Below are positions 351-48,576 of a DNA stretch of 64,000 bases, piece after piece. The position numbers were made by a program, and so were the translations under genes. Under the pieces are notes generated by a model. It ran no database searches. It worked only from the letters and a program-made list of their open reading frames with translations, and had not been told where the DNA came from. Numbering within the stretch: position 1 is the first letter of the stretch; each line of letters begins with the position of its first letter. This stretch comes from Candidatus Pacearchaeota archaeon (GTDB lineage Archaea; Nanobdellota; Nanobdellia; Pacearchaeales; GW2011-AR1), in contig JACPGZ010000017.1 in the NCBI GenBank assembly GCA_016188895.1, positions 2,538 to 66,537 of the forward strand. The letters run 5' to 3'.

Positions 351-691
351 TGGCAAAAATATTTCTAAGAAGAAACTGGAACAAATACAAAAGGCTTGGA
401 TTAAGAAACAAGAAGAAGCAGGTTTGGAGAAAACCAAAGGGGATACATAATAAGATGAGGGAAAATAGGAGAGGATATAGTGCAATTGTCAGGATTGGAT
501 ACAGAAAAGGCAGGAAGAACAGAGGCAGGATTGAAGGATTTATTCCTGTGGTTGTGAGAAATTTATCAGATTTAAGCAATGTTGGAAATGATAATATAGT
601 TATAATTGGAAAGGTTGGAAAAAAGAAACGCCAGATTATTCTAGATAAAATTAAAGAATTAAACGCCCATTCCATAGGGCATCGGAGTTGA
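350..691 (+). CDS. rpl32e: 50S ribosomal protein L32e
   Basis: KYKRLG...RKKKQVWRKPKGIHNKMR is an L32e signature. The C-terminus AHSIGHRS-stop is encoded by a dispersed repeat copy. Confidence 0.85.
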   Translation: MAKIFLRRNWNKYKRLGLRNKKKQVWRKPKGIHNKMRENRRGYSAIVRIGYRKGRKNRGRIEGFIPVVVRNLSDLSNVGNDNIVIIGKVGKKKRQIILDKIKELNAHSIGHRS

Positions 692-2775: not shown

Positions 2776-3179
2776 TTCATTACCCTAGATTAAGCAGATA
2801 CGCGTCTGAATTTGAGTTAGATTTGAGATTGCCTGATGAATATAATGAATGGGTTAAAAGAATAAATCCGGAAATCAGAGAAAGTGTAGAACAAGGGGCT
2901 AGAAAAATACAAAAAAGTTTTGAGCTAGACGATTATGATGGTAGTTATCCTATATTAAATTGGAGTGAAGATAGGGGATTGGTAGGAATTCTTGTAGGAG
3001 CAAGGTCTGGTGCTGGATTGGCACAAGAGTCTGTTGATAGATTTTACTTTCATCATGTTAATTCTCCATTACAAGCTCTTACTCTTATAGGTATTATATC
3101 ATTTTATTTAAATGGATTGCAGAACTTGTATGAAAAGCAAAAAAGTTCAGGAGCTGAAAATGAAACTCAAAAAACGTAG
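2772..3179 (+). CDS. hypothetical protein inserted between rpl30 and rpl15
   Basis: 135-aa ORF, ATGA-coupled to the L30 stop and overlapping the L15 start. No recognisable family motif. Contains a GxGxG-like stretch GARSGAGLAQE. Confidence 0.35.
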   Translation: MIHYPRLSRYASEFELDLRLPDEYNEWVKRINPEIRESVEQGARKIQKSFELDDYDGSYPILNWSEDRGLVGILVGARSGAGLAQESVDRFYFHHVNSPLQALTLIGIISFYLNGLQNLYEKQKSSGAENETQKT

Positions 3180-3588
3180 AAAATCTGCAAGAATGCGCGG
3201 CTCAAGAACGCATGGCTGGGCGATGAAGAAGCACAAAGGAAAAGGAAATGTAGGTGGAAAAGGAAGAGCTGGAAGCGGAAAAAGAGCTAGCCAGAAGAAA
3301 ACACAAATATTGAATCTTAAGGAAAAGTATTTTGGCAAAAAAGGAATGAAGGCAAAGAGAAAAATAATAAAGATTATTAATGTTGGTGATATTGAGAATA
3401 ATATAGATAAAATGATTGCAAAAGGGAAGGCAAAAAGAGCAGGAGATGGTATTGAGATTAATCTTCCTGATTATAAAATATTGGGAGATGGTGAATTAAG
3501 CTTAAAGCTCATTGTTCATGCTCATGCTGTATCTTCATCTGCTAAGGAAAAGATTGAAAGAAGAGGAGGGTCTGTGATTTTGGAATAA
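3160..3588 (+). CDS. rpl15: 50S ribosomal protein L15P
   Basis: MKLKKRRKSARMRGSRTHGWAMKKHKGKGNVGGKGRAGSGKRA matches L15. Internal start chosen over the ORF-track start at 3112. Confidence 0.85.
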   Translation: MKLKKRRKSARMRGSRTHGWAMKKHKGKGNVGGKGRAGSGKRASQKKTQILNLKEKYFGKKGMKAKRKIIKIINVGDIENNIDKMIAKGKAKRAGDGIEINLPDYKILGDGELSLKLIVHAHAVSSSAKEKIERRGGSVILE

Positions 3589-9858: not shown

Positions 9859-9885
9859 GCCCACTCTGTATGGCATCGGAGTTGG
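9859..9885 (+). repeat. dispersed repeat copy (variant gcccactctgtatggcatcggagttgg) between rpoN and rpl1
   Basis: Core matches with 3 substitutions. Lies in the 5' UTR just before the rpl1 RBS. Confidence 0.7.
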
Positions 9886-11661: not shown

Positions 11662-11757
11662 GCCGCTGTCGCATAATGGTAGTGCACCAGCCTTGAGTTA
11701 TAAAAATAAGTAAGCTGGGCCCTTCGGGGCTTCCAGGTTCGATTCCTGGCAGCGGCG
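11662..11757 (+). tRNA. tRNA-Ser (anticodon TGA/UGA) with a ~15-nt intron at the canonical 37/38 position and a long variable arm
   Basis: Acceptor GCCGCTG/CAGCGGC, discriminator G. D-stem GCAT/GTGC. Anticodon stem CCAGC/GCTGG with loop CTTGAG, then intron TTATAAAAATAAGTA. Variable hairpin GCCCTTCGGGGC. T-arm CCAGG-TTCGATT-CCTGG. Confidence 0.7.
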
Positions 11758-12345: not shown

Positions 12346-12924
12346 TTATTTTTTCAATGCTTTTCTGTGTATAATTGTTCTTCCTTGCTTTGCAACGTGC
12401 TTTTGCTCATGGGCTGTTTTTTCAGCTGTTTTCAATCCTGCTTCAATTGTTGCTTCTTTCTTTTCTTTTTCCTCTATCTTTTGTTCTTCTGTTTTTTCAG
12501 GCTTTTCTTCTAATTTCTCCTCTTGTTTTTCTTTTGTTTCCTCTTTTACTTTCTCTGCCTTTTTCTTTTCCTCTTCAGTTTGTTTTTTCCTTTTTTCTTC
12601 ACGAATCACGCGCCATTTTACAGCTTCTGGAATTATGGCAAGCTCTACATTGACTATGTCTTCTTGTTTTTTTGCTTTGACCTTTATTTTTGTGGGTGGC
12701 TTTGAAATGCCTCTAAACCATATTTCTTCATTTAGATATTTGTTAATCTTAACTTTTCTTATGTCCCTGTCTTGAACTTTCATATGCTTTGCTATGAAAA
12801 TTTTAATTGCCTTGATAGCGCGATTTGTTCTTCTATATCTTGGAACTTTAAGCCACTGCTTTCTTAAAGGTATTACATATTCCCGTTCAAGAACAGCTTT
12901 AGGTTTATCTGCCATTTTATCCAA
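12346..12924 (-). CDS. rpl31e: 50S ribosomal protein L31e with a long Lys/Glu-rich C-terminal extension
   Basis: REYVIPLRKQWLKVPRYRRTNRAIKAIKIFIAKHMKV...EEIWFRGISKPPTKIKV is the L31e core. It is followed by ~90 aa of KE-rich low complexity. Confidence 0.8.
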   Translation of the reverse strand: MDKMADKPKAVLEREYVIPLRKQWLKVPRYRRTNRAIKAIKIFIAKHMKVQDRDIRKVKINKYLNEEIWFRGISKPPTKIKVKAKKQEDIVNVELAIIPEAVKWRVIREEKRKKQTEEEKKKAEKVKEETKEKQEEKLEEKPEKTEEQKIEEKEKKEATIEAGLKTAEKTAHEQKHVAKQGRTIIHRKALKK

Positions 12925-13117
12925 TAAACTCCTTTTTTACTCTTCGTGGCTTGAGCTTCAACTTTCTGGTTCTCCAGTTTCTTCTTACTCTTGTTATTGC
13001 AGAAGGATGCACTCTCTTGCCTTTGCCAAATTTTTTTAATATAATCCAAAATGGAGCCCATTTTGTCCTTCTTTCCAGTTTTGCAAGATGAACTTTTTTC
13101 TGATAATGTTTCGTCAT
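12917..13117 (-). CDS. rpl39e: 50S ribosomal protein L39e
   Basis: 66-aa highly basic protein, ...RVHPSAITRVRRNWRTRKLK. Confidence 0.8.
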   Translation of the reverse strand: MTKHYQKKVHLAKLERRTKWAPFWIILKKFGKGKRVHPSAITRVRRNWRTRKLKLKPRRVKKEFIG

Positions 13118-13398
13118 TTTTTATCAGGTTTAGCAAGAAAATCTAAAATATCTTTTGTAACAACCCCTCCTTGTCTTAATTGTTCTAATATTGATGGATA
13201 ATGTGTTCCTATTACTTCTTCTCTATATATCCTATCATCTGCTGAAGCATTAAATCCTAATCTTGCTCTTCCCTTTTTAATTTCTACCAAAGTTATAATT
13301 ATTGGATTAGCATTTTCTCTTAAGATATATATTTTTTCATCTTGCTCTCTTGCTATAACAAGTCCTATTTTGTCAGGATTATAGTTTTCAGATGTCAT
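13114..13398 (-). CDS. CsrA-like small RNA-binding protein (tentative)
   Basis: IGLVIAREQDEKIYI...IIITLVEIKKGRARLGFNASADDRIYREEV resembles bacterial CsrA (LVLSRK..E.I.I....I.V..V.G.QVKLGI.AP....I.R.EI). Start overlaps the stop of the upstream PDCD5-like gene. Confidence 0.4.
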   Translation of the reverse strand: MTSENYNPDKIGLVIAREQDEKIYILRENANPIIITLVEIKKGRARLGFNASADDRIYREEVIGTHYPSILEQLRQGGVVTKDILDFLAKPDKK

Positions 13399-13613
13399 CT
13401 TAAACTCCTTAATATCTCTTTTAATTTTGCATCATCAATTTCTTCAATTCCAGATTGAACTATTTGCGTTATTTGAACAATTGCCTTTAATGCTCTCTCT
13501 GGATGTGCAAGCTTTAAATTTCCGTATCTTGATATTGCTTCTTTTGTCATATGCTTTTTTGCAAATGACTCTATCATCTCAATGTTCTTTTCTATGTTTT
13601 CTTGTTCTGTCAT
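13395..13613 (-). CDS. PDCD5/TFAR19-like DNA-binding protein (COG2118)
   Basis: ...AISRYGNLKLAHPERALKAIVQITQIVQSG...LKEILRSL matches the PDCD5 C-terminal motif. This is the usual position next to S19e/L39e/L31e in archaea. Confidence 0.55.
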   Translation of the reverse strand: MTEQENIEKNIEMIESFAKKHMTKEAISRYGNLKLAHPERALKAIVQITQIVQSGIEEIDDAKLKEILRSLR

Positions 13614-13618
13614 TTTAA

Positions 13619-14032
13619 TTATTTTAATTTATTTGCAGTTTCTTCTAAAAACTTTGTTCCTTTGTCAGTCAGCTTTCTGCCTGTTCTTTTTCCTTTTACT
13701 TTTTCAAGAAAACCTGCTTTTTCAGCTTGCTGCAAGATAACTCGGATAATTTTTCCGCTTGCTTTTCTGAACATCTCTGGCTTCATTCCTCTAATCTGCC
13801 TTCCTCCGTATCTTGTTCTAAGCCTGTTAACCCCAACAACCCTGTTTTTATGTATCTGCCTTAAGATGCTTGCAGCTCTTTTATACCAGAAGTCATCATC
13901 AGCAGGCGGTCTTGATTTTGACGGGCCTGTTTTAACATAAGACGCCCACTCTGGCATGGTAAACTCTTTCAAATTTTTCAATTCGCTTGCTAGTGTTTCA
14001 TTGAATTTTTGCGCATCAACTTCATATATCAT
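13619..14032 (-). CDS. rps19e: 30S ribosomal protein S19e
   Basis: EWASYVKTG...DDDFWYKRAASILRQI...RLRTRYGG...ASGKIIRVILQQAEKAGFLEK. Confidence 0.85.
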   Translation of the reverse strand: MIYEVDAQKFNETLASELKNLKEFTMPEWASYVKTGPSKSRPPADDDFWYKRAASILRQIHKNRVVGVNRLRTRYGGRQIRGMKPEMFRKASGKIIRVILQQAEKAGFLEKVKGKRTGRKLTDKGTKFLEETANKLK

Positions 14033-14130
14033 GAGAAATCTGGAGAATCTTGGCTTATAAATGTTATGGCTTTGAAAAGGTAAATATTAAATACATATCA
14101 AAATAAGTAGATTAGAGGTAAATAAGGTAA

Positions 14131-14178: not shown

Positions 14179-15132
14179 ATGGTATATATCAATTTCTTGG
14201 TGCTTGCATTATGGATTGTTTTATTAGTGGGGGGATCTGATTATTTTGTTAAATCTGCATCAAGAATTGCCAAAAGATTAGGGGTATCTGAGCTGGTCAT
14301 TGGTTTAATACTTGTGGCAAATGGCACATCTATTCCAGAGCTTACTGTATCTATATTTTCGGCAATTAAAGGACATACAGAAATTATAGCTGGAAATATT
14401 GTTGGGAGTAATATAGCTGATCTTGCATGGATTGCAGGATTAAGTGCATTGCTATATGGTGGAATGAAGACAAATAAATTAATTTTGAGGAGAGATGGCT
14501 ATATGATGCTCTTTACAACTATTATATTTTTTGTATTTGCACTAACAGGAAGCATAAAATGGTATATGGGTATATTATTTTTGATATTGTATGCAGGATA
14601 TACATATTTTTTATTAAAGAAGAAGCATAGAGGAGAAAAACACCATCTGAAAGAGCATCTCGAGATTAAAGATGGTCTATGGAAGGATATATTAATATTT
14701 ATTATTAGTTGTATAGCAATTTTTATTGGCGGAAAATATCTTGTTGGAGAGATAATATTTATTGCAGCTTTTTTTAGTATTCCTGAAACAGCAATTGGAA
14801 TATTAAATGCAATTGGCACAACACTGCCTGAATTAACAGTTTCTATAATAGCTGGAAGAAAAGGAATGTTAGATTTATTATGGGGCAATATAATTGGAAG
14901 TAATATTACAAACATACTATTTGTTGTTGGAGCATCTTCATTGATTTCTCCCGTTGAAATCATTAAGTTATCTTCTTACTTTACAATTCCGTTTTTGCTT
15001 GGATTGACAATTCTCTCGCTTATATTTATGAGAACCAAATGGAAGGTTTCGCGTTTTGAGGGCGGGATTCTTTTTGCTTTGTATCTGATATTCCTTGCTG
15101 GATTATTTTATTTAAGGACTGGATTGATTTGA
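14179..15132 (+). CDS. Ca2+/Na+ antiporter, CaCA family (YrbG-like)
   Basis: Two alpha-repeat signatures (GTSIPELTVSI...GNIVGSNI and GTTLPELTVSI...GNIIGSNI). ~10 TM segments. Confidence 0.8.
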   Translation: MVYINFLVLALWIVLLVGGSDYFVKSASRIAKRLGVSELVIGLILVANGTSIPELTVSIFSAIKGHTEIIAGNIVGSNIADLAWIAGLSALLYGGMKTNKLILRRDGYMMLFTTIIFFVFALTGSIKWYMGILFLILYAGYTYFLLKKKHRGEKHHLKEHLEIKDGLWKDILIFIISCIAIFIGGKYLVGEIIFIAAFFSIPETAIGILNAIGTTLPELTVSIIAGRKGMLDLLWGNIIGSNITNILFVVGASSLISPVEIIKLSSYFTIPFLLGLTILSLIFMRTKWKVSRFEGGILFALYLIFLAGLFYLRTGLI

Positions 15133-15159
15133 TTAACTCCGATGCCCTATGGAATGGGC
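15133..15159 (-). repeat. dispersed repeat copy (minus orientation) at the YhbY 3' end / antiporter 3' end
   Basis: Reverse complement ggagaaaagcccattccatagggcatcggagttaa. It encodes the YhbY C-terminus AHSIGHRS-stop. Confidence 0.85.
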
Positions 15160-15387
15160 TTTTCTCCATTTTTTTATGAAGATAGTGTAGCCAACAATCT
15201 TGCTTGTGTATTTGTTACCTAGCTCATTAATAATTGACGTATTAATTTCTTTTAACTTTTCCCTGTCCCTGCAGAAATTTTTGAGTACAGTAATCCTTAC
15301 ACTGTCTGAATTTTTAAAGGCATTTTTCACACTCGCCAGAAAACCTGATGTTATGCCTTTCTTTCCAAGCTGAATTGTTATTTGCAT
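15133..15387 (-). CDS. YhbY/CRM-domain RNA-binding protein
   Basis: IQLGKKGITSGFLASVKNAFKNSDSVRITVLKN pattern of the CRM/YhbY fold. C-terminus AHSIGHRS is contributed by a dispersed repeat copy. Confidence 0.6.
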   Translation of the reverse strand: MQITIQLGKKGITSGFLASVKNAFKNSDSVRITVLKNFCRDREKLKEINTSIINELGNKYTSKIVGYTIFIKKWRKAHSIGHRS

Positions 15388-20345: not shown

Positions 20346-20744
20346 ATGTTAAAGAAAAAACCTGTAAAGGAAAAGGGAAAGATCAGGCTTAGTGAATACT
20401 TTAAAGGCCTGAAAGCAGGAGACATGGTAAGCATTGTTAGAGAGCTAAGCCTTGCTACTGGATTTCCTAAAAGATTGCAGGGAAGAACAGGGCAGGTTAT
20501 CAGCAAGAAAGGAGAAGCTTATATAGTGAATATAAATGATAATAAAAAAACTAAACAATACATCATAAGAGCAATACATTTAAGAAAAGCCCATTCCAGC
20601 CCATTCCATAGGGCATCGGAAACACAGAGTACGAGCCCACTGCGTAGGGCATTGCAGACACAGAGAACTGGCCCACTGCGTAGGGCATTGCAGACACAGA
20701 GAACTGGCCCACTGCGTAGGGCATTGCAGACACATCGGAGTTGA
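20346..20744 (+). CDS. rpl21e: 50S ribosomal protein L21e with a repeat-encoded ~45-aa C-terminal tail
   Basis: KIRLSEYFKGLKAGDMVSIV...RLQGRTGQVISKKGEAYIVNINDNKKTKQYIIRAIHLRKA is L21e. The ORF then continues through the 36-bp tandem repeats (HSSPFHRASETQSTSPLRRALQTQRTGPLRRALQTQRTGPLRRALQTHRS). Confidence 0.8.
   Translation: MLKKKPVKEKGKIRLSEYFKGLKAGDMVSIVRELSLATGFPKRLQGRTGQVISKKGEAYIVNINDNKKTKQYIIRAIHLRKAHSSPFHRASETQSTSPLRRALQTQRTGPLRRALQTQRTGPLRRALQTHRS
20589..20744 (+). repeat. tandem array (4 units, 36-bp period, no spacers) of the dispersed CCCAYTSCRTAGGGCATYG repeat
   Basis: Units: cccattccagcccattccatagggcatcggaaacacagagtacgag, cccactgcgtagggcattgcagacacagagaactgg (x2), cccactgcgtagggcattgcagacacatcggagttga. 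Confidence 0.9.
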
Positions 20745-21601: not shown

Positions 21602-21660
21602 GCCCATTCCAGCCCATTCCATAGGGCATCGGAGTGATGCAGAGCAGAAGCGTCGCGAGG
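21602..21660 (+). repeat. dispersed repeat copy with extended 3' part (…catcggagtgatgcagagcagaagcgtcgcgagg) upstream of rps13
   Basis: cccattccagcccattccatagggcatcggagtgatgcagagcagaagcgtcgcgagg. The 3' extension is shared with the copy at 22696..22743. Confidence 0.85.
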
Positions 21661-22155: not shown

Positions 22156-22607
22156 TGTTCGGAAAAAAACATAGCAAATACAAAAGACCGCGAAAGCTGT
22201 ATGATAAATATAGAATAGAAGCTGAGAAAGAAATTGTCAAGAAATATGGGCTAAAAAATAAGAAAGAGATTTGGAAGGCAGAAGCGGCTATAGAAAGCAT
22301 CAGAAGAAGAGGCAAGATGCTGATAGTTGCTGAGCCTGAAAAACAAAGAAAATTTGTCTCCAAATTGAAAAAAATGAATTTTGATATCAATGAAATTTCA
22401 GATGTCCTTGCATTAAACAAGGAAGATTGGTTAAAAAGAAGATTACAAACTATTGTTTATGAAAAAAAACTTTCTGAAAGCCCTAAGCAGGCAAGACAAC
22501 TTATTGTGCACAAGCATATCGCAGTTGGAGACCATATAATCAATAAACCTTCATACATGGTTGATATGGATGACGAAAAAAAGATAAGGAGGGTTAACAA
22601 TGGCTGA
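22152..22607 (+). CDS. rps4: 30S ribosomal protein S4P
   Basis: KYKRPRKLYDKYRIEAEKEIVKKYGLKNKKEIWKAEAAIESIRRR... and C-terminal S4 domain. Overlaps the S13 stop. Confidence 0.85.
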   Translation: MMFGKKHSKYKRPRKLYDKYRIEAEKEIVKKYGLKNKKEIWKAEAAIESIRRRGKMLIVAEPEKQRKFVSKLKKMNFDINEISDVLALNKEDWLKRRLQTIVYEKKLSESPKQARQLIVHKHIAVGDHIINKPSYMVDMDDEKKIRRVNNG

Positions 22608-23118
22608 AAGCCCACTGCATAGGGCATTGCAGTTGCATAGTACCAGCCCACTGCATAGGGCATCGGAAACACAGAGTACGAGCCCATTACGCTCCCATTC
22701 CATAGAGCATCGGAGTGATGCAGAGCAGAAGCGTCGTGAGGTGGGAGAACGAGAAGGAATTGTTTATATTTTCACATCATTTAACAATACAATTGTTCAT
22801 GCTACAGATTTATCAGGAAATACAATATCGCGCATATCTGGAGGAATTGTTACAAAACAAGATAGACTTAAAGCCAACCCGACTGTTGCTATGTTTGTTG
22901 CAAAAAGGGTGGCTGAAATGTTAAAAGATAACGGGGTAAATGCTCTGTATATTAGAATACGTGCAAAAACAGGAAGCTCTGGGCTAGGACCTGGAGCGCA
23001 TGCTGTTGTAAAGAGCCTATCAAAAGAAGGATTTAGAATTATAAGCATTGTTGATACAACAAGAATACCAAGAGGCGGGCCAAAGCCTGCAGGCGGTAGA
23101 AGGGGAAGACGTGTTTAA
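22600..23118 (+). CDS. rps11: 30S ribosomal protein S11P, either with a ~47-aa repeat-encoded N-terminal extension or starting at GTG 22741
   Basis: GIVYIFTSFNNTIVHATDLSGNTISRISGG is the S11 core. The only in-frame ATG is 22600, upstream of the three repeat units (MAESPLHRALQLHSTSPLHRASETQSTSPLRSHSIEHRSDAEQKRREV...). Confidence 0.8.
   Translation: MAESPLHRALQLHSTSPLHRASETQSTSPLRSHSIEHRSDAEQKRREVGEREGIVYIFTSFNNTIVHATDLSGNTISRISGGIVTKQDRLKANPTVAMFVAKRVAEMLKDNGVNALYIRIRAKTGSSGLGPGAHAVVKSLSKEGFRIISIVDTTRIPRGGPKPAGGRRGRRV
22610..22745 (+). repeat. three tandem units of the dispersed repeat at the rps4/rps11 junction
   Basis: cccactgcatagggcattgcagttgcatagtaccag / cccactgcatagggcatcggaaacacagagtacgag / cccattacgctcccattccatagagcatcggagtgatgcagagcagaagcgtcgtgagg. 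Confidence 0.9.
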
Positions 23119-23815: not shown

Positions 23816-23866
23816 ACTTTTTCTAAACAGATATACTTAAAAGTCAATTAAATCCTATGTTTTTAT

Positions 23867-23961
23867 GCAGGAGTGCCAGAGCGGTCAAATGGGCTTGGCT
23901 AAGGCCTATGTAGAAACCAAGTGGCTTAGTGCCTGCGAAGGTTCGAATCCTTCCTCCTGCA
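23867..23961 (+). tRNA. class II tRNA, probably tRNA-Leu (A73 discriminator, long variable arm), with an ~11-nt intron in the anticodon loop; anticodon not resolved
   Basis: Acceptor GCAGGAG/CTCCTGC+A. T-arm GAAGG-TTCGAAT-CCTTC. Anticodon stem CTTGG/CCAAG encloses CTAAGG+CCTATGTAGAA+A. Variable arm TGGCTTAGTGCCTGC. Canonical parsing gives anticodon AAG, which is unusual. Confidence 0.55.
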
Positions 23962-23966
23962 TTGAA

Positions 23967-33473: not shown

Positions 33474-33971
33474 TTATTTCTTGTTTTTGATAATAAGATA
33501 AATAAGAATAACAATTAACATAACAATCAATAATGCCATAACCCACGTAAGAGCCCACAAATTATTATATCTGTAATTCTGCATCATTCCTGAGCCCATC
33601 CCTCCATAACCCATCATGCCTCTTCCCATCATCATGCTCATCATTCCTGTGCTCATTGCATCATGCTCTCCGCAATAAAATGCCTTGCCCATGCTGACAT
33701 GAATTTGTTTCAAACTTGCAGAGCCCTCGCCCCCCATCATCTCGTCCATCTGCTCATGTAACTCGCCAGGATGCATCTGCTCCATGTAATATTCTCCAAG
33801 TATTTCAAGCTGCTCTTCGCTAAGATTGCTACATGATATTTTTTGTTTTATAATTTCTTCAGCTTGAGCAAAATCCTCTTCTCCATGAGCGCTGGCAAAA
33901 ATTGCTATGTTTACTGCTAAGATACCAATTATCAAAAAACTTATCAGATATATTTTGTATTTATTTATCAT
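33474..33971 (-). CDS. Met-rich secreted/membrane-anchored protein, paralog 1 (putative Cu-binding)
   Basis: Signal peptide, HGEEDF..., Met/Gly-rich stretch (MMGGEG...STGMMSMMMGRGMMGYGGMGSGMM), C-terminal TM. ~98% nucleotide identity to 48234..48397 over ~170 bp. Confidence 0.6.
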   Translation of the reverse strand: MINKYKIYLISFLIIGILAVNIAIFASAHGEEDFAQAEEIIKQKISCSNLSEEQLEILGEYYMEQMHPGELHEQMDEMMGGEGSASLKQIHVSMGKAFYCGEHDAMSTGMMSMMMGRGMMGYGGMGSGMMQNYRYNNLWALTWVMALLIVMLIVILIYLIIKNKK

Positions 33972-46776: not shown

Positions 46777-47547
46777 TCATACTAGAGCCTCCTGTATAAT
46801 TCTTTCAATTGTGCCTTTTGGATACCATAATGCATACCATCTCGCCATCTCGCCATAAATCTCTTCATCAGAATATTTATCTCCATAATTTTTAATAAAC
46901 CATTTCGCCATGCCTTGTGCTGCAATTGAGTGAGCACATCCGCAGTGTGTTATGATTGTTGGGTTTTTTGGAGAGCCGCAGCAATAATCACATGTAAATG
47001 AGTTTACTATCCTGTTCCATCTTTCTTGTTCTGAAGAGCTTAATTGCAATGAGCGATAAGTTCCCCAGTTCTTTTGAGAGGTAATTGGATCATCAAATGA
47101 TACTTGCGCTTCTTGTCCGTAAAATGGAGTGCCTGTTGGAACAACATTATTTAGCAAATCTTGGACAGAATCGCCTGTTGATGGTGTTGTTGATAACTCA
47201 CTTATTGTTGGGATTGGTTTTACCTTGCTTTTATATCCTGATATAGCTGGCTCTTCGCCCTGTGCAAGAGGCATTGGCTTTAATGTGATTTTTGAGCCAT
47301 ATTCAAACTTTCCTAGATTGACAGTTCCTCCAATAATTCCAGAGGCATATGCCCTTGGTATTAAAAGCTGATTTATAAAAAGCAAGATAGTCAAAATAAC
47401 CACTCCAGCTAAAATATAATTATTTCTAAATAAAAATGGTTCTGTATCTTGCGATACCCTATGGAATGGGCTCGTGCTCTGTGTTTCCGATGCCCTACGG
47501 AGTGGGCTTTCTTCCATTTTTTCTTCTTTTGTTATGTTGTTTTCCAT
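46777..47547 (-). CDS. membrane-anchored protein with C-terminal CxxCC...HCxCxH cluster; N-terminus encoded by the dispersed repeat
   Basis: FTCDYCCGSPKNPTIITHCGCAHS. N-terminal ...ESPLRRASETQSTSPFHRVSQ comes from the repeat. TM ILAGVVILTILLF. Confidence 0.45.
   Translation of the reverse strand: MENNITKEEKMEESPLRRASETQSTSPFHRVSQDTEPFLFRNNYILAGVVILTILLFINQLLIPRAYASGIIGGTVNLGKFEYGSKITLKPMPLAQGEEPAISGYKSKVKPIPTISELSTTPSTGDSVQDLLNNVVPTGTPFYGQEAQVSFDDPITSQKNWGTYRSLQLSSSEQERWNRIVNSFTCDYCCGSPKNPTIITHCGCAHSIAAQGMAKWFIKNYGDKYSDEEIYGEMARWYALWYPKGTIERIIQEALV
47457..47507 (-). repeat. dispersed repeat copy (two units, minus orientation) inside the 5' end of the 46777..47547 gene
   Basis: Reverse complement cccactccgtagggcatcggaaacacagagcacgagcccattccatagg. 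It is translated as ESPLRRASETQSTSPFHRVSQ. Confidence 0.85.
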
Positions 47548-48103: not shown

Positions 48104-48576
48104 ATTATTATTGCTATAACAACGAGGATTATTAGTATTAATACAAGCAAGACTATAGGATTATTATAATTTGCTCCTTGTTGATTAAACATGCCTTCCA
48201 TCATGCCACTAGAACCTATCATCCCTCTGTTCATCATCATGCTCATCATTCCTGTGCTCATTGCATCATGCTCTCCGCAATAAAATGCCTTGCCCATGCT
48301 GACATGAATTTGTTTCAAACTTGCTGATCCCTCGCCCCCCATCATCTCGTCCATCTGCTCATGTAACTCGCCAGGATGCATCTGCTCCATGTAATACTCG
48401 CCAATTACTTCGAGCTGATCGTCTGTGAGCTGGTTGCATTGAATTTTGCTCTTAATTAACTCTTCTGCCTTTGCAAAATCTTCTTCGCCATGAGCGCTTA
48501 CAATTGCAATTCCTATTAAGAAGATTGCAATAAATACACCTATTTTTGCTTTCATTTTATTCTTATGTTTTATCAT
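48073..48576 (-). CDS. Met-rich secreted/membrane-anchored protein, paralog 2
   Basis: Same architecture as the 33474 gene. Central 56 codons nearly identical at the DNA level. Confidence 0.6.
   Translation of the reverse strand: MIKHKNKMKAKIGVFIAIFLIGIAIVSAHGEEDFAKAEELIKSKIQCNQLTDDQLEVIGEYYMEQMHPGELHEQMDEMMGGEGSASLKQIHVSMGKAFYCGEHDAMSTGMMSMMMNRGMIGSSGMMEGMFNQQGANYNNPIVLLVLILIILVVIAIIIWLLKTNKRK

Follow-up and report, generated by a model that had tools for sequence, protein, structure and literature searches.

The stretch analysed here, called the window throughout, comprises 64,000 nucleotides (nt) of contig JACPGZ010000017.1 (positions 2,538-66,537 of the forward strand) from the assembly GCA_016188895.1 of a Candidatus Pacearchaeota archaeon. 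Its minus strand carries a cluster of archaeal ribosomal-protein genes that includes a small gene for a protein resembling CsrA, which is among the best-studied bacterial post-transcriptional regulators. An earlier note on this DNA, which named no strand, had placed a CsrA-like open reading frame (ORF) of 94 amino acids (aa) between the PDCD5-like and the L39e genes. The ORF is present there, on the minus strand, and encodes the protein MTSENYNPDKIGLVIAREQDEKIYILRENANPIIITLVEIKKGRARLGFNASADDRIYREEVIGTHYPSILEQLRQGGVVTKDILDFLAKPDKK. The identical protein MBI2448994.1, 'carbon storage regulator [Candidatus Pacearchaeota archaeon]', is found in NCBI on a 110-kb contig. As shown below, the ORF is a genuine gene under purifying selection and encodes a divergent member of the CsrA/RsmA family. 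The cluster consists of the following genes and elements:

14055..14061, minus strand: TTTATAA, a TATA-box-like element about 23-29 nt upstream of the S19e ATG (read from the sequence)
13619..14032, minus strand: S19e gene, first cistron of the cluster (Pfam 155 bits, NCBIfam 162 bits)
13395..13613, minus strand: gene for a short (72 aa) PDCD5-like/COG2118 DNA-binding protein (Pfam dsDNA_bind 32.8 bits against a cut-off of 26)
13405..13409, minus strand: AGGAG Shine-Dalgarno motif 6 nt 5' of the CsrA-like ATG, within the 3' end of the PDCD5-like gene (read from the sequence)
13114..13398, minus strand: CsrA-like gene, 94 aa, ATG start and TGA stop (ORF list and Pfam CsrA)
12917..13117, minus strand: L39e gene, 66 aa (weak Pfam and NCBIfam L39e matches)
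12346..12915, minus strand: L31e gene, 189 aa from the ATG at 12915 (Pfam 49.4 bits; NCBIfam 80.4 bits against a cut-off of 68; gene call in L001)

The S19e, COG2118, L39e and L31e genes of the window are adjacent and co-oriented and follow the canonical archaeal order S19e-COG2118-L39e-L31e (PMC10833476), to which the CsrA-like gene is added as an extra cistron. Its ATG overlaps the TGA of the PDCD5-like gene as ATGA (13395-13398), and its own TGA is overlapped in the same way by the ATG of L39e (13114-13117). Assembled a second time and independently (Logan SRR12113422, 2073-nt contig), the same sequencing run gave an identical gene order. The PDCD5-like protein is 85% identical to its counterpart in the locus L091, and the C-terminal tail of L31e is rich in Lys and Glu. 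An element similar to TTTATAA, 'aagatttataagg', is present at equal distance from S19e in five other loci of the CsrA-like family; judged from its sequence and position, TTTATAA is a putative promoter that would give a leaderless or near-leaderless operon mRNA.

The pattern that had been quoted as typical of CsrA is found in the ORF as GLVIAR..IYI..ITLVEI..GRARLGFNA..IYREEV, and the proposed search with hidden Markov models gave a significant match to Pfam CsrA (PF02599), with 35.3 bits against a curated gathering score of 27 and E = 1.1e-8, aligning residues 13-63 to positions 2-48 of the 53 profile positions. This cut-off is also passed by seven of the nine other family members tested. A word-indexed search with the single protein matched the protein itself alone, and an exhaustive phmmer search was needed to recover the family. 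Among 1.84 billion representatives the latter gave 26 matches, the best of which form a subfamily of proteins of 88-104 aa with a common C-terminal extension. In profile searches of 5.8 billion proteins about 16 clusters (90% identity) of this extended subfamily were followed by a score gap to the ordinary bacterial CsrAs. A profile built from 15 archaeal family sequences, to which no bacterial sequences contributed (A5), matches all 11 distinct CsrA/RsmA/RsmE/RsmN/RsmF sequences with solved structures in the PDB (1.3e-8 to 2.7e-6) and nothing else. The protein can be divided into three parts:

13363..13398, minus strand: N-terminal tail, residues 1-12, ahead of beta-1 (the Pfam match begins at residue 13)
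13210..13362, minus strand: CsrA core domain, residues 13-63 (Pfam match, residue mapping and fold match)
13117..13209, minus strand: family-specific C-terminal extension, residues 64-94 (AlphaFold2 model and family alignment)

Within the core, L13, I15, R17, R46, I57, R59, E61, and V62 correspond to L2, L4, R6, R31, V42, R44, E46, and I47 of Escherichia coli CsrA, I15, I57, and V62 being conservative replacements. L13, R17, R46, and E61 are conserved in at least 90% of the family, and R59 is invariant in all 15 family members and in an alignment of 56 sequences. Its counterpart R44 is essential for RNA binding by CsrA (PMC7366521). The core contains a 4-residue insertion between beta-2 and beta-3. 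The N-terminal tail, which ranges from 0 to about 26 aa across the family, is predicted with low confidence (mean predicted local distance difference test score, pLDDT, of 53 for residues 1-10). The C-terminal extension is predicted to contain two extra helices (residues 68-75 and 82-89, pLDDT about 90) and carries the motif hP.Iy..L..G..vTkeml, which is conserved across the archaeal family. Scanned alone, the extension has no match in Pfam. Because it shares a 'Q.G..(I/V)(T/D)...L..(I/L)L' ending with the PDCD5-like protein, it was also considered as a PDCD5-like remnant; with an hhalign probability of 0.1% and the lack of a Pfam match for the extension alone this idea was rejected.

The structure prediction suggested in the earlier note points in the same direction as the sequence comparisons. 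The AlphaFold2 monomer model obtained from the 56-sequence alignment has a pLDDT of 86.9 (the single-sequence model, with a pLDDT of 44, was unusable) and matches solved CsrA-type chains and nothing else. In the Foldseek comparison against the PDB the top 13 matches are all CsrA, RsmA, or RsmE chains (probability 0.90-1.00, and 1.00 for the top 11) and the later matches are noise. Template modelling scores, given for the target, are 0.59-0.87, and the best-fitting chains superpose with root-mean-square deviations of 1.6-2.5 Å over about 57 columns. In the monomer the strands beta-2 to beta-4 are formed and beta-1 and beta-5 are unpaired, as would be expected for a model of one half of a strand-swapped dimer.

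The gene was compared in 11 loci, comprising the window, L091, L092, L004, L006, L008, L093, L067 (from the same genome as L002), L090, L061, and L084. It directly follows S19e in all of them, counting the window and its closest relative L091, in which it follows S19e plus dsDNA_bind, and it precedes the 66-aa L39e gene and L31e in all loci reaching far enough. Most junctions are ATGA overlaps. The translational coupling into the S19e-L39e-L31e cluster that had been proposed for the window is confirmed, and it is conserved in all 11 loci. All organism labels seen for family members are Pacearchaeota or Woesearchaeota, and the GC content of the gene follows that of its locus in every locus examined. 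Further upstream, L002, L006/L007, L008, and the window share NFACT-R and YhbY/CRM genes, and YhbY is also present in L093. In the window, YhbY and S19e are separated by a Na+/Ca2+ exchanger gene on the opposite strand (Pfam 189 bits; 14179-15132, plus strand). The two genes are direct neighbours in the same orientation in L002, L006/L007, L008, and L093, and the exchanger gene therefore seems to have been inserted locally in the window lineage.

These loci also bear on the question of whether a csrA gene of bacterial origin has ended up on an archaeal contig through contamination or chimeric assembly. Apart from the present case the CsrA family is bacterial (PMC7366521), and bins of metagenome-assembled genomes can carry contamination, as is seen in L062, which is labelled Omnitrophota yet bears an archaeal S19e-L39e pair. 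However, the CsrA-like gene overlaps archaeal genes at both ends, identical junctions are present in the independent assembly and in ten further loci from other samples, and the composition of the gene matches its locus. The probability of an artefact of this kind is negligible. Contamination and chimerism are excluded, and the CsrA copy in the L31e-L39e-S19e neighbourhood, which the earlier note had called unexpected, is an established archaeal gene native to its locus. Two observations on single contigs may be added. L062 (DATJPO010000037.1, 'Candidatus Omnitrophota bacterium') carries archaeal S19e and L39e genes 58% identical to those of the window and is probably a mis-binned DPANN contig. 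The closest CsrA-like relative with genomic context, P0003 (L091:1733-1999), opens with a 10-residue duplication (SRKQDEKIYL twice) covering beta-1 and beta-2, which may be an assembly artefact or a real rearrangement, the coverage of the contig being 3x.

Concerning the distribution of the gene, we anchored the comparison on S19e and used the 80 species-representative GTDB genomes with the closest S19e. All but one of them carry archaeal labels, for the most part Pacearchaeota, Woesearchaeota, Nanoarchaeota or Nanoarchaeia, with a few given simply as 'archaeon'; the remaining one is the Omnitrophota bin. S19e stands directly before L39e in about half of these genomes. In the remaining genomes the junction, a hypervariable slot (L010-L089, around locus positions 2900-3300), is occupied by unrelated orphan ORFs, one or two per genome and 60-122 aa long, most of which are coupled to S19e by an ATGA overlap. 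Ten of these orphans were compared with Pfam and had no matches. In 86 related ORF sets, S19e or the ORF in the slot is followed by the 66-aa L39e gene. A recognisable COG2118 gene is present in the S19e-L39e slot of the window and L091 only. Among the slot ORFs, a small family of 92-94 aa recurs in L056, L073, L078, and L082, and a second variable slot lies between L39e and L31e.

In synonymous divergence (dS) the CsrA-like gene is on a par with its neighbours: dS is 1.10 for the gene and 0.97-1.10 for the neighbours in one pair of related genomes, and 0.55 and 0.49-0.92, respectively, in a second pair. This indicates that the gene diverged together with the operon by vertical inheritance. 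The ratio of nonsynonymous to synonymous divergence (dN/dS) is 0.33-0.41, compared with 0.008-0.12 for S19e, COG2118, L39e, L31e, and YhbY. Thus, the gene is under purifying selection that is much weaker than that on its neighbours. Monophyly of the CsrA-bearing genomes was not seen on a neighbour-joining tree of S19e, a 137-aa marker of weak resolution; these genomes are spread over the deep, long branches of the tree. The distribution and the dS values are consistent with an acquisition long ago and numerous losses since, and transfer within the group is also possible. According to this scenario the gene would have entered an ancestor of the archaeal group from a bacterium or a phage, and would then have been inherited vertically with the operon and lost frequently. 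The contexts of the nearest CsrAs outside the family comprise one uninformative contig and one phage-like contig. The latter encodes P0039, a 59-aa homologue (L094:5001-5180) within a phage-like early-gene region with Sipho_Gp157 and Phage_P22_Y8K6 domains nearby, which by analogy hints at a possible route of entry into archaea.

Based on the variability of the slot, the gene could also be a passenger that gives the host little or no benefit and is maybe slowly decaying. The slot collects unrelated small ORFs in related genomes, the gene is fast-evolving with core residues lost in some members, and P0039, the nearest short relative outside the family for which a context is available, is located on a phage-like contig. 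However, dN/dS is well below 1 in four comparisons, and members that are just 24-57% identical to the window protein have kept the key residues for RNA binding as well as the C-terminal motif. In addition, the dS values shared with the neighbours speak for retention over a long divergence and against a recent insertion, and the scan of the viral contigs of IMG/VR revealed no relatives of the window protein. We therefore regard a mere passenger as very improbable.

The core and the RNA-contacting residues have been retained, and the simplest model would therefore be a homodimeric RNA-binding protein recognising GGA-type motifs. Judged from the model and from its bacterial relatives, the protein may form a strand-swapped homodimer that binds such motifs in mRNA. 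The internal cistrons in the loci carrying the gene use GGAG or AGGAG Shine-Dalgarno sequences (an example of an internal ribosome-binding site of the S19e-L31e operon is UUAAGGAGUUUAAGAUG), which would place the protein in a position to compete with ribosomes at internal start sites. In these polycistronic operons GGA-type motifs would be located mainly at such internal sites, and binding there would reduce or adjust translation. The level of the regulator would in turn be tied to ribosome production, as its gene is translationally coupled to, and presumably co-transcribed with, S19e, L39e, and L31e. FliW is a protein antagonist that binds to the C-terminal region of Bacillus CsrA, and by analogy the C-terminal extension of the archaeal protein is a candidate docking surface for a protein partner. 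Taken as a whole, the explanation that the gene belongs to the CsrA family, is native to the archaeon and encodes an RNA-binding regulator of translation has, in our estimate, a probability of roughly 0.7.

Several observations weigh against this explanation. At the level of the family, the NCBIfam CsrA equivalog models (TIGR00202, NF002469, and NF001844) give only 22-23 bits against cut-offs of 70-106, and the protein should accordingly be classed with the divergent members of the family rather than with the orthologues of bacterial CsrA. The L004 and L084 proteins score below the Pfam cut-off, and the equivalent of R6 is Leu in L004, a loss of a core feature. The window protein itself has Glu at the position of E. 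coli R7 and Asp at that of V40. Bacterial CsrAs were contained in the input alignment of the AlphaFold2 model, and the fold is thus not fully independent of the sequence evidence. Concerning regulation, the S19e leaders of the CsrA-like loci are not enriched in GGA and have none in the last 40 nt in ten of ten loci, no GGA-dense non-coding decoy RNA is present in the 64 kb of the window (the densest stretches are coding), and an Rfam scan of the window found two tRNAs only and no match to a Csr/Rsm small RNA family. The gene is present in only three of the 80 genomes with the closest S19e, a sparse distribution which shows that it is dispensable in the group, and its evolution at the protein level is 3-5 times or more faster than that of the adjacent genes. 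GGA sites for autoregulation in the S19e leader were considered and rejected, because GGA is neither enriched there nor present in its last 40 nt and because the operon appears to be leaderless.

Alternatively, the CsrA fold may have been put to a new use, as a ribosome-associated protein, a ribosome-assembly factor, or an autoregulator of this single operon, and may not act as a global regulator of mRNAs. The fixed, coupled position would then make the protein roughly equimolar with S19e, L39e, and L31e. The position inside the ribosomal-protein operon is indeed invariant in all 11 loci, and the slot is normally occupied by COG2118, which is conserved together with ribosomal genes (PMC10833476) and is missing there in nine of the 11 CsrA-like loci. 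The clade-specific two-helix extension could be a new interaction surface. On the other hand, the fast evolution relative to the neighbours together with the sparse distribution is atypical of a structural component of the ribosome. COG2118 is also missing from the slot in 77 relatives without the CsrA-like gene, so that there is no sign of a one-for-one replacement, and no conserved leader or GGA site fit for autoregulation was found. A ribosome-associated or operon-specific factor is ranked as the main rival to a translation regulator, unlikely as we consider it, with the tolerated passenger as the weaker one.

The window contains, in addition, 13 sense-oriented copies of a repeat of about 36 nt (0.03 are expected by chance) with the consensus GCCCAYTSCRTAGGGCATCGGAG / CCCAYTSYRTAKRGCATYG / GCCCAYTSCRTAGGGCATYGSAG, to which the earlier note had tentatively connected the CsrA-like gene. 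The copies are distributed as follows:

666-684, plus strand: repeat copy
9860-9878, plus strand: repeat copy
20600-20726, plus strand: four tandem units with a 36-nt period
21613-21631, plus strand: repeat copy
22611-22712, plus strand: three units
15140-15158, minus strand: repeat copy
47452-47506, minus strand: two units

Most of them are found at junctions of ribosomal-protein genes, namely between L32e and L19e, upstream of L1, between L21e and the Rpb4-like gene, upstream of S13, between S4 and S11, and at the 3' end of YhbY. In many copies the last nucleotides are GGAG or GGAA, located a few nucleotides 5' of the next start codon. The consensus folds into a 4-bp GCCC/GGGC hairpin. A second, possibly pseudoknot-like pairing (YTSC/GSAR) has one covarying position (CG in seven copies, GC in four, unpaired in two), the copies not being mutually independent. 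GGA is present in eight of the 13 copies, the others having GCA. It is never located in the hairpin loop; it lies 3' of the GCCC/GGGC hairpin in the consensus fold and is base-paired in the alternative pairing. A metagenome scan found the repeat on 21 contigs, 17 of which, with a coverage of 1-3x (for the most part 2-3x), belong to the Hainich groundwater assembly H51. This assembly is also the source of L091 (3x), the locus of the closest CsrA-like relative, and L091 itself carries one copy. Neither the repeat nor an analogous repeat family was found in 10-kb samples of the four more distant CsrA-like loci L002, L004, L007, and L008. The repeat is therefore a younger feature specific to the sub-lineage of the window.

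It could be thought that the CsrA-like protein binds these repeats and that they constitute its regulon, which would extend the proposed role as a translation regulator and not replace it. The number of sense copies, far above chance, their preference for ribosomal-protein junctions and the GGAG/GGAA endings close to the next start codons would be in line with this, as would the presence of the repeat in the Hainich assembly that contains the closest CsrA-like relative, including the copy on the contig of the latter. However, the GGA motifs that the suggested check was meant to find in hairpins are present in only part of the copies and lie outside the loop or in paired positions, and the more distant loci have the gene but, within the sampled 10 kb, not the repeat. 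That gene and repeat occur together in two close relatives is what shared ancestry by itself would produce, and is explained by it. A link between the protein and the repeats is thus possible but unsupported, and we consider it improbable.

Some of the repeat units may be read through as protein. The reading frame is open through the units in the L21e ORF (20346-20744, plus strand), the S11 ORF (22600-23118, plus strand), and an ORF at 46777-47547 (minus strand), giving the peptide repeat SPLHRASETQST / GPLRRALQTQRT. Accordingly, the L21e ORF is predicted to have a 49-aa C-terminal tail past the Pfam domain, and the S11 ORF, the ATG of which follows a strong AGGAGG, a 52-aa N-terminal tail. 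In another frame the unit ends the L32e (350-691) and YhbY (15133-15387) ORFs with ...AHSIGHRS*. Another sequence repetition was seen in the CsrA-like-bearing genome of L007 (L007:647-855), where two full 87-nt tandem units (98% identical) and the first 35 nt of a third are located upstream of a gene with a VKOR domain. These units are near-identical throughout and are therefore not a CRISPR array.

Other features of the window include a 96-nt tRNA at 11662-11757 (plus strand), which is recognised by Rfam (49.2 bits) and not by ARAGORN and probably represents an archaeal tRNA with an intron. With 97 nt, the tRNA-Leu at 23866-23962 is long as well. The 300-nt stretches 33597-33896 and 48202-48501 are 85% identical and lie in minus-strand ORFs rich in Gly and Met codons, which look like genes for paralogous low-complexity proteins.

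The earlier note had stated that CsrA is essentially absent from archaea. This agrees with a review from 2020, according to which CsrA has been detected exclusively in eubacterial species and archaeal homologues were anticipated from metagenomes (PMC7366521), and our full-text literature searches found no description of an archaeal CsrA. In a groundwater study of ultra-small prokaryotes csrA is mentioned among the highly expressed genes, in a passage on functions conserved across bacteria and archaea, and no archaeal copy is described (PMC9938205). The statement does not extend to the databases, as the NCBI and JGI pipelines already label the gene 'carbon storage regulator'. The bare CsrA annotation is thus not new. 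What appears not to have been described before is the conserved placement in the S19e-L39e slot, together with the extension specific to the clade and the pattern of its evolution.

A native archaeal clade means that the CsrA fold has crossed the domains and was retained. It provides a concrete candidate for translational control at the level of the Shine-Dalgarno sequence in genome-reduced DPANN archaea, in which regulators are scarce, and a natural variant for testing which parts of CsrA set RNA specificity and partner binding. It also cautions against the automatic transfer of the label 'carbon storage regulator' to archaeal genes. Going further, one might speculate that a DPANN lineage runs a bacterial-style Csr system, in which a CsrA-type protein made in step with the ribosomal proteins binds the ribosome-binding-site regions of internal cistrons, and in the window sub-lineage also the hairpin-plus-GGAG repeats, and so sets the relative translation of ribosomal and other genes. 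We give little credence to this extended scheme, which, if true, would be the first CsrA-type post-transcriptional regulon in Archaea.

Among the known systems, the gammaproteobacterial CsrA/RsmA/RsmE proteins of E. coli and Pseudomonas resemble the window protein in the core domain, the predicted fold, the R44 equivalent, the hydrophobic and arginine residues of beta-1, and the small size. Binding to GGA at ribosome-binding sites, the mode expected for the archaeal protein, is taken from this family by analogy. In contrast to the gammaproteobacterial proteins, the window protein has an archaeal host, is encoded inside a ribosomal-protein operon, and has 12 extra N-terminal residues, whereas in canonical CsrA beta-1 begins at residue 2 without an N-terminal tail. 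It further differs by the 4-residue beta-2/beta-3 insertion, the two-helix C-terminal extension of about 30 aa, and the Glu and Asp in place of R7 and V40, and no decoy RNA of the CsrB/RsmZ type was found in the 64-kb window. The best Foldseek match, 5dmb_D, derives from a CsrA-FliW complex and belongs to the FliW-regulated CsrAs of Bacillus and Geobacillus (5dmb, 1t3o), and the family profile aligns to Bacillus subtilis CsrA over almost its full length. Both the window protein and Bacillus CsrA extend C-terminally beyond the core, so that control by a protein partner would be a reasonable analogy. However, the genomic context of the archaeal gene is ribosomal and not flagellar, and its extension has no detectable similarity to any Pfam family.

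The CsrA/Rsm homologues of phages and mobile elements provide a third comparison. The closest short relatives share a longer beta-2/beta-3 hairpin and a beta-3 of the LTLVEI type with the archaeal family, and a phage-borne CsrA such as P0039 is a plausible vehicle for inter-domain transfer. In contrast to these, the archaeal family is chromosomal, fixed in one operon, and has the C-terminal extension. Compared with the canonical cluster S19e-COG2118-L39e-L31e-eIF6, the window has no eIF6 after L31e and most relatives lack COG2118 in the slot, whereas the window keeps the first four genes in order on one strand. An extra gene is also present in Methanocaldococcus jannaschii at the same point, between COG2118 and L39e; there it is COG2117, and in the window it is a member of the CsrA family.

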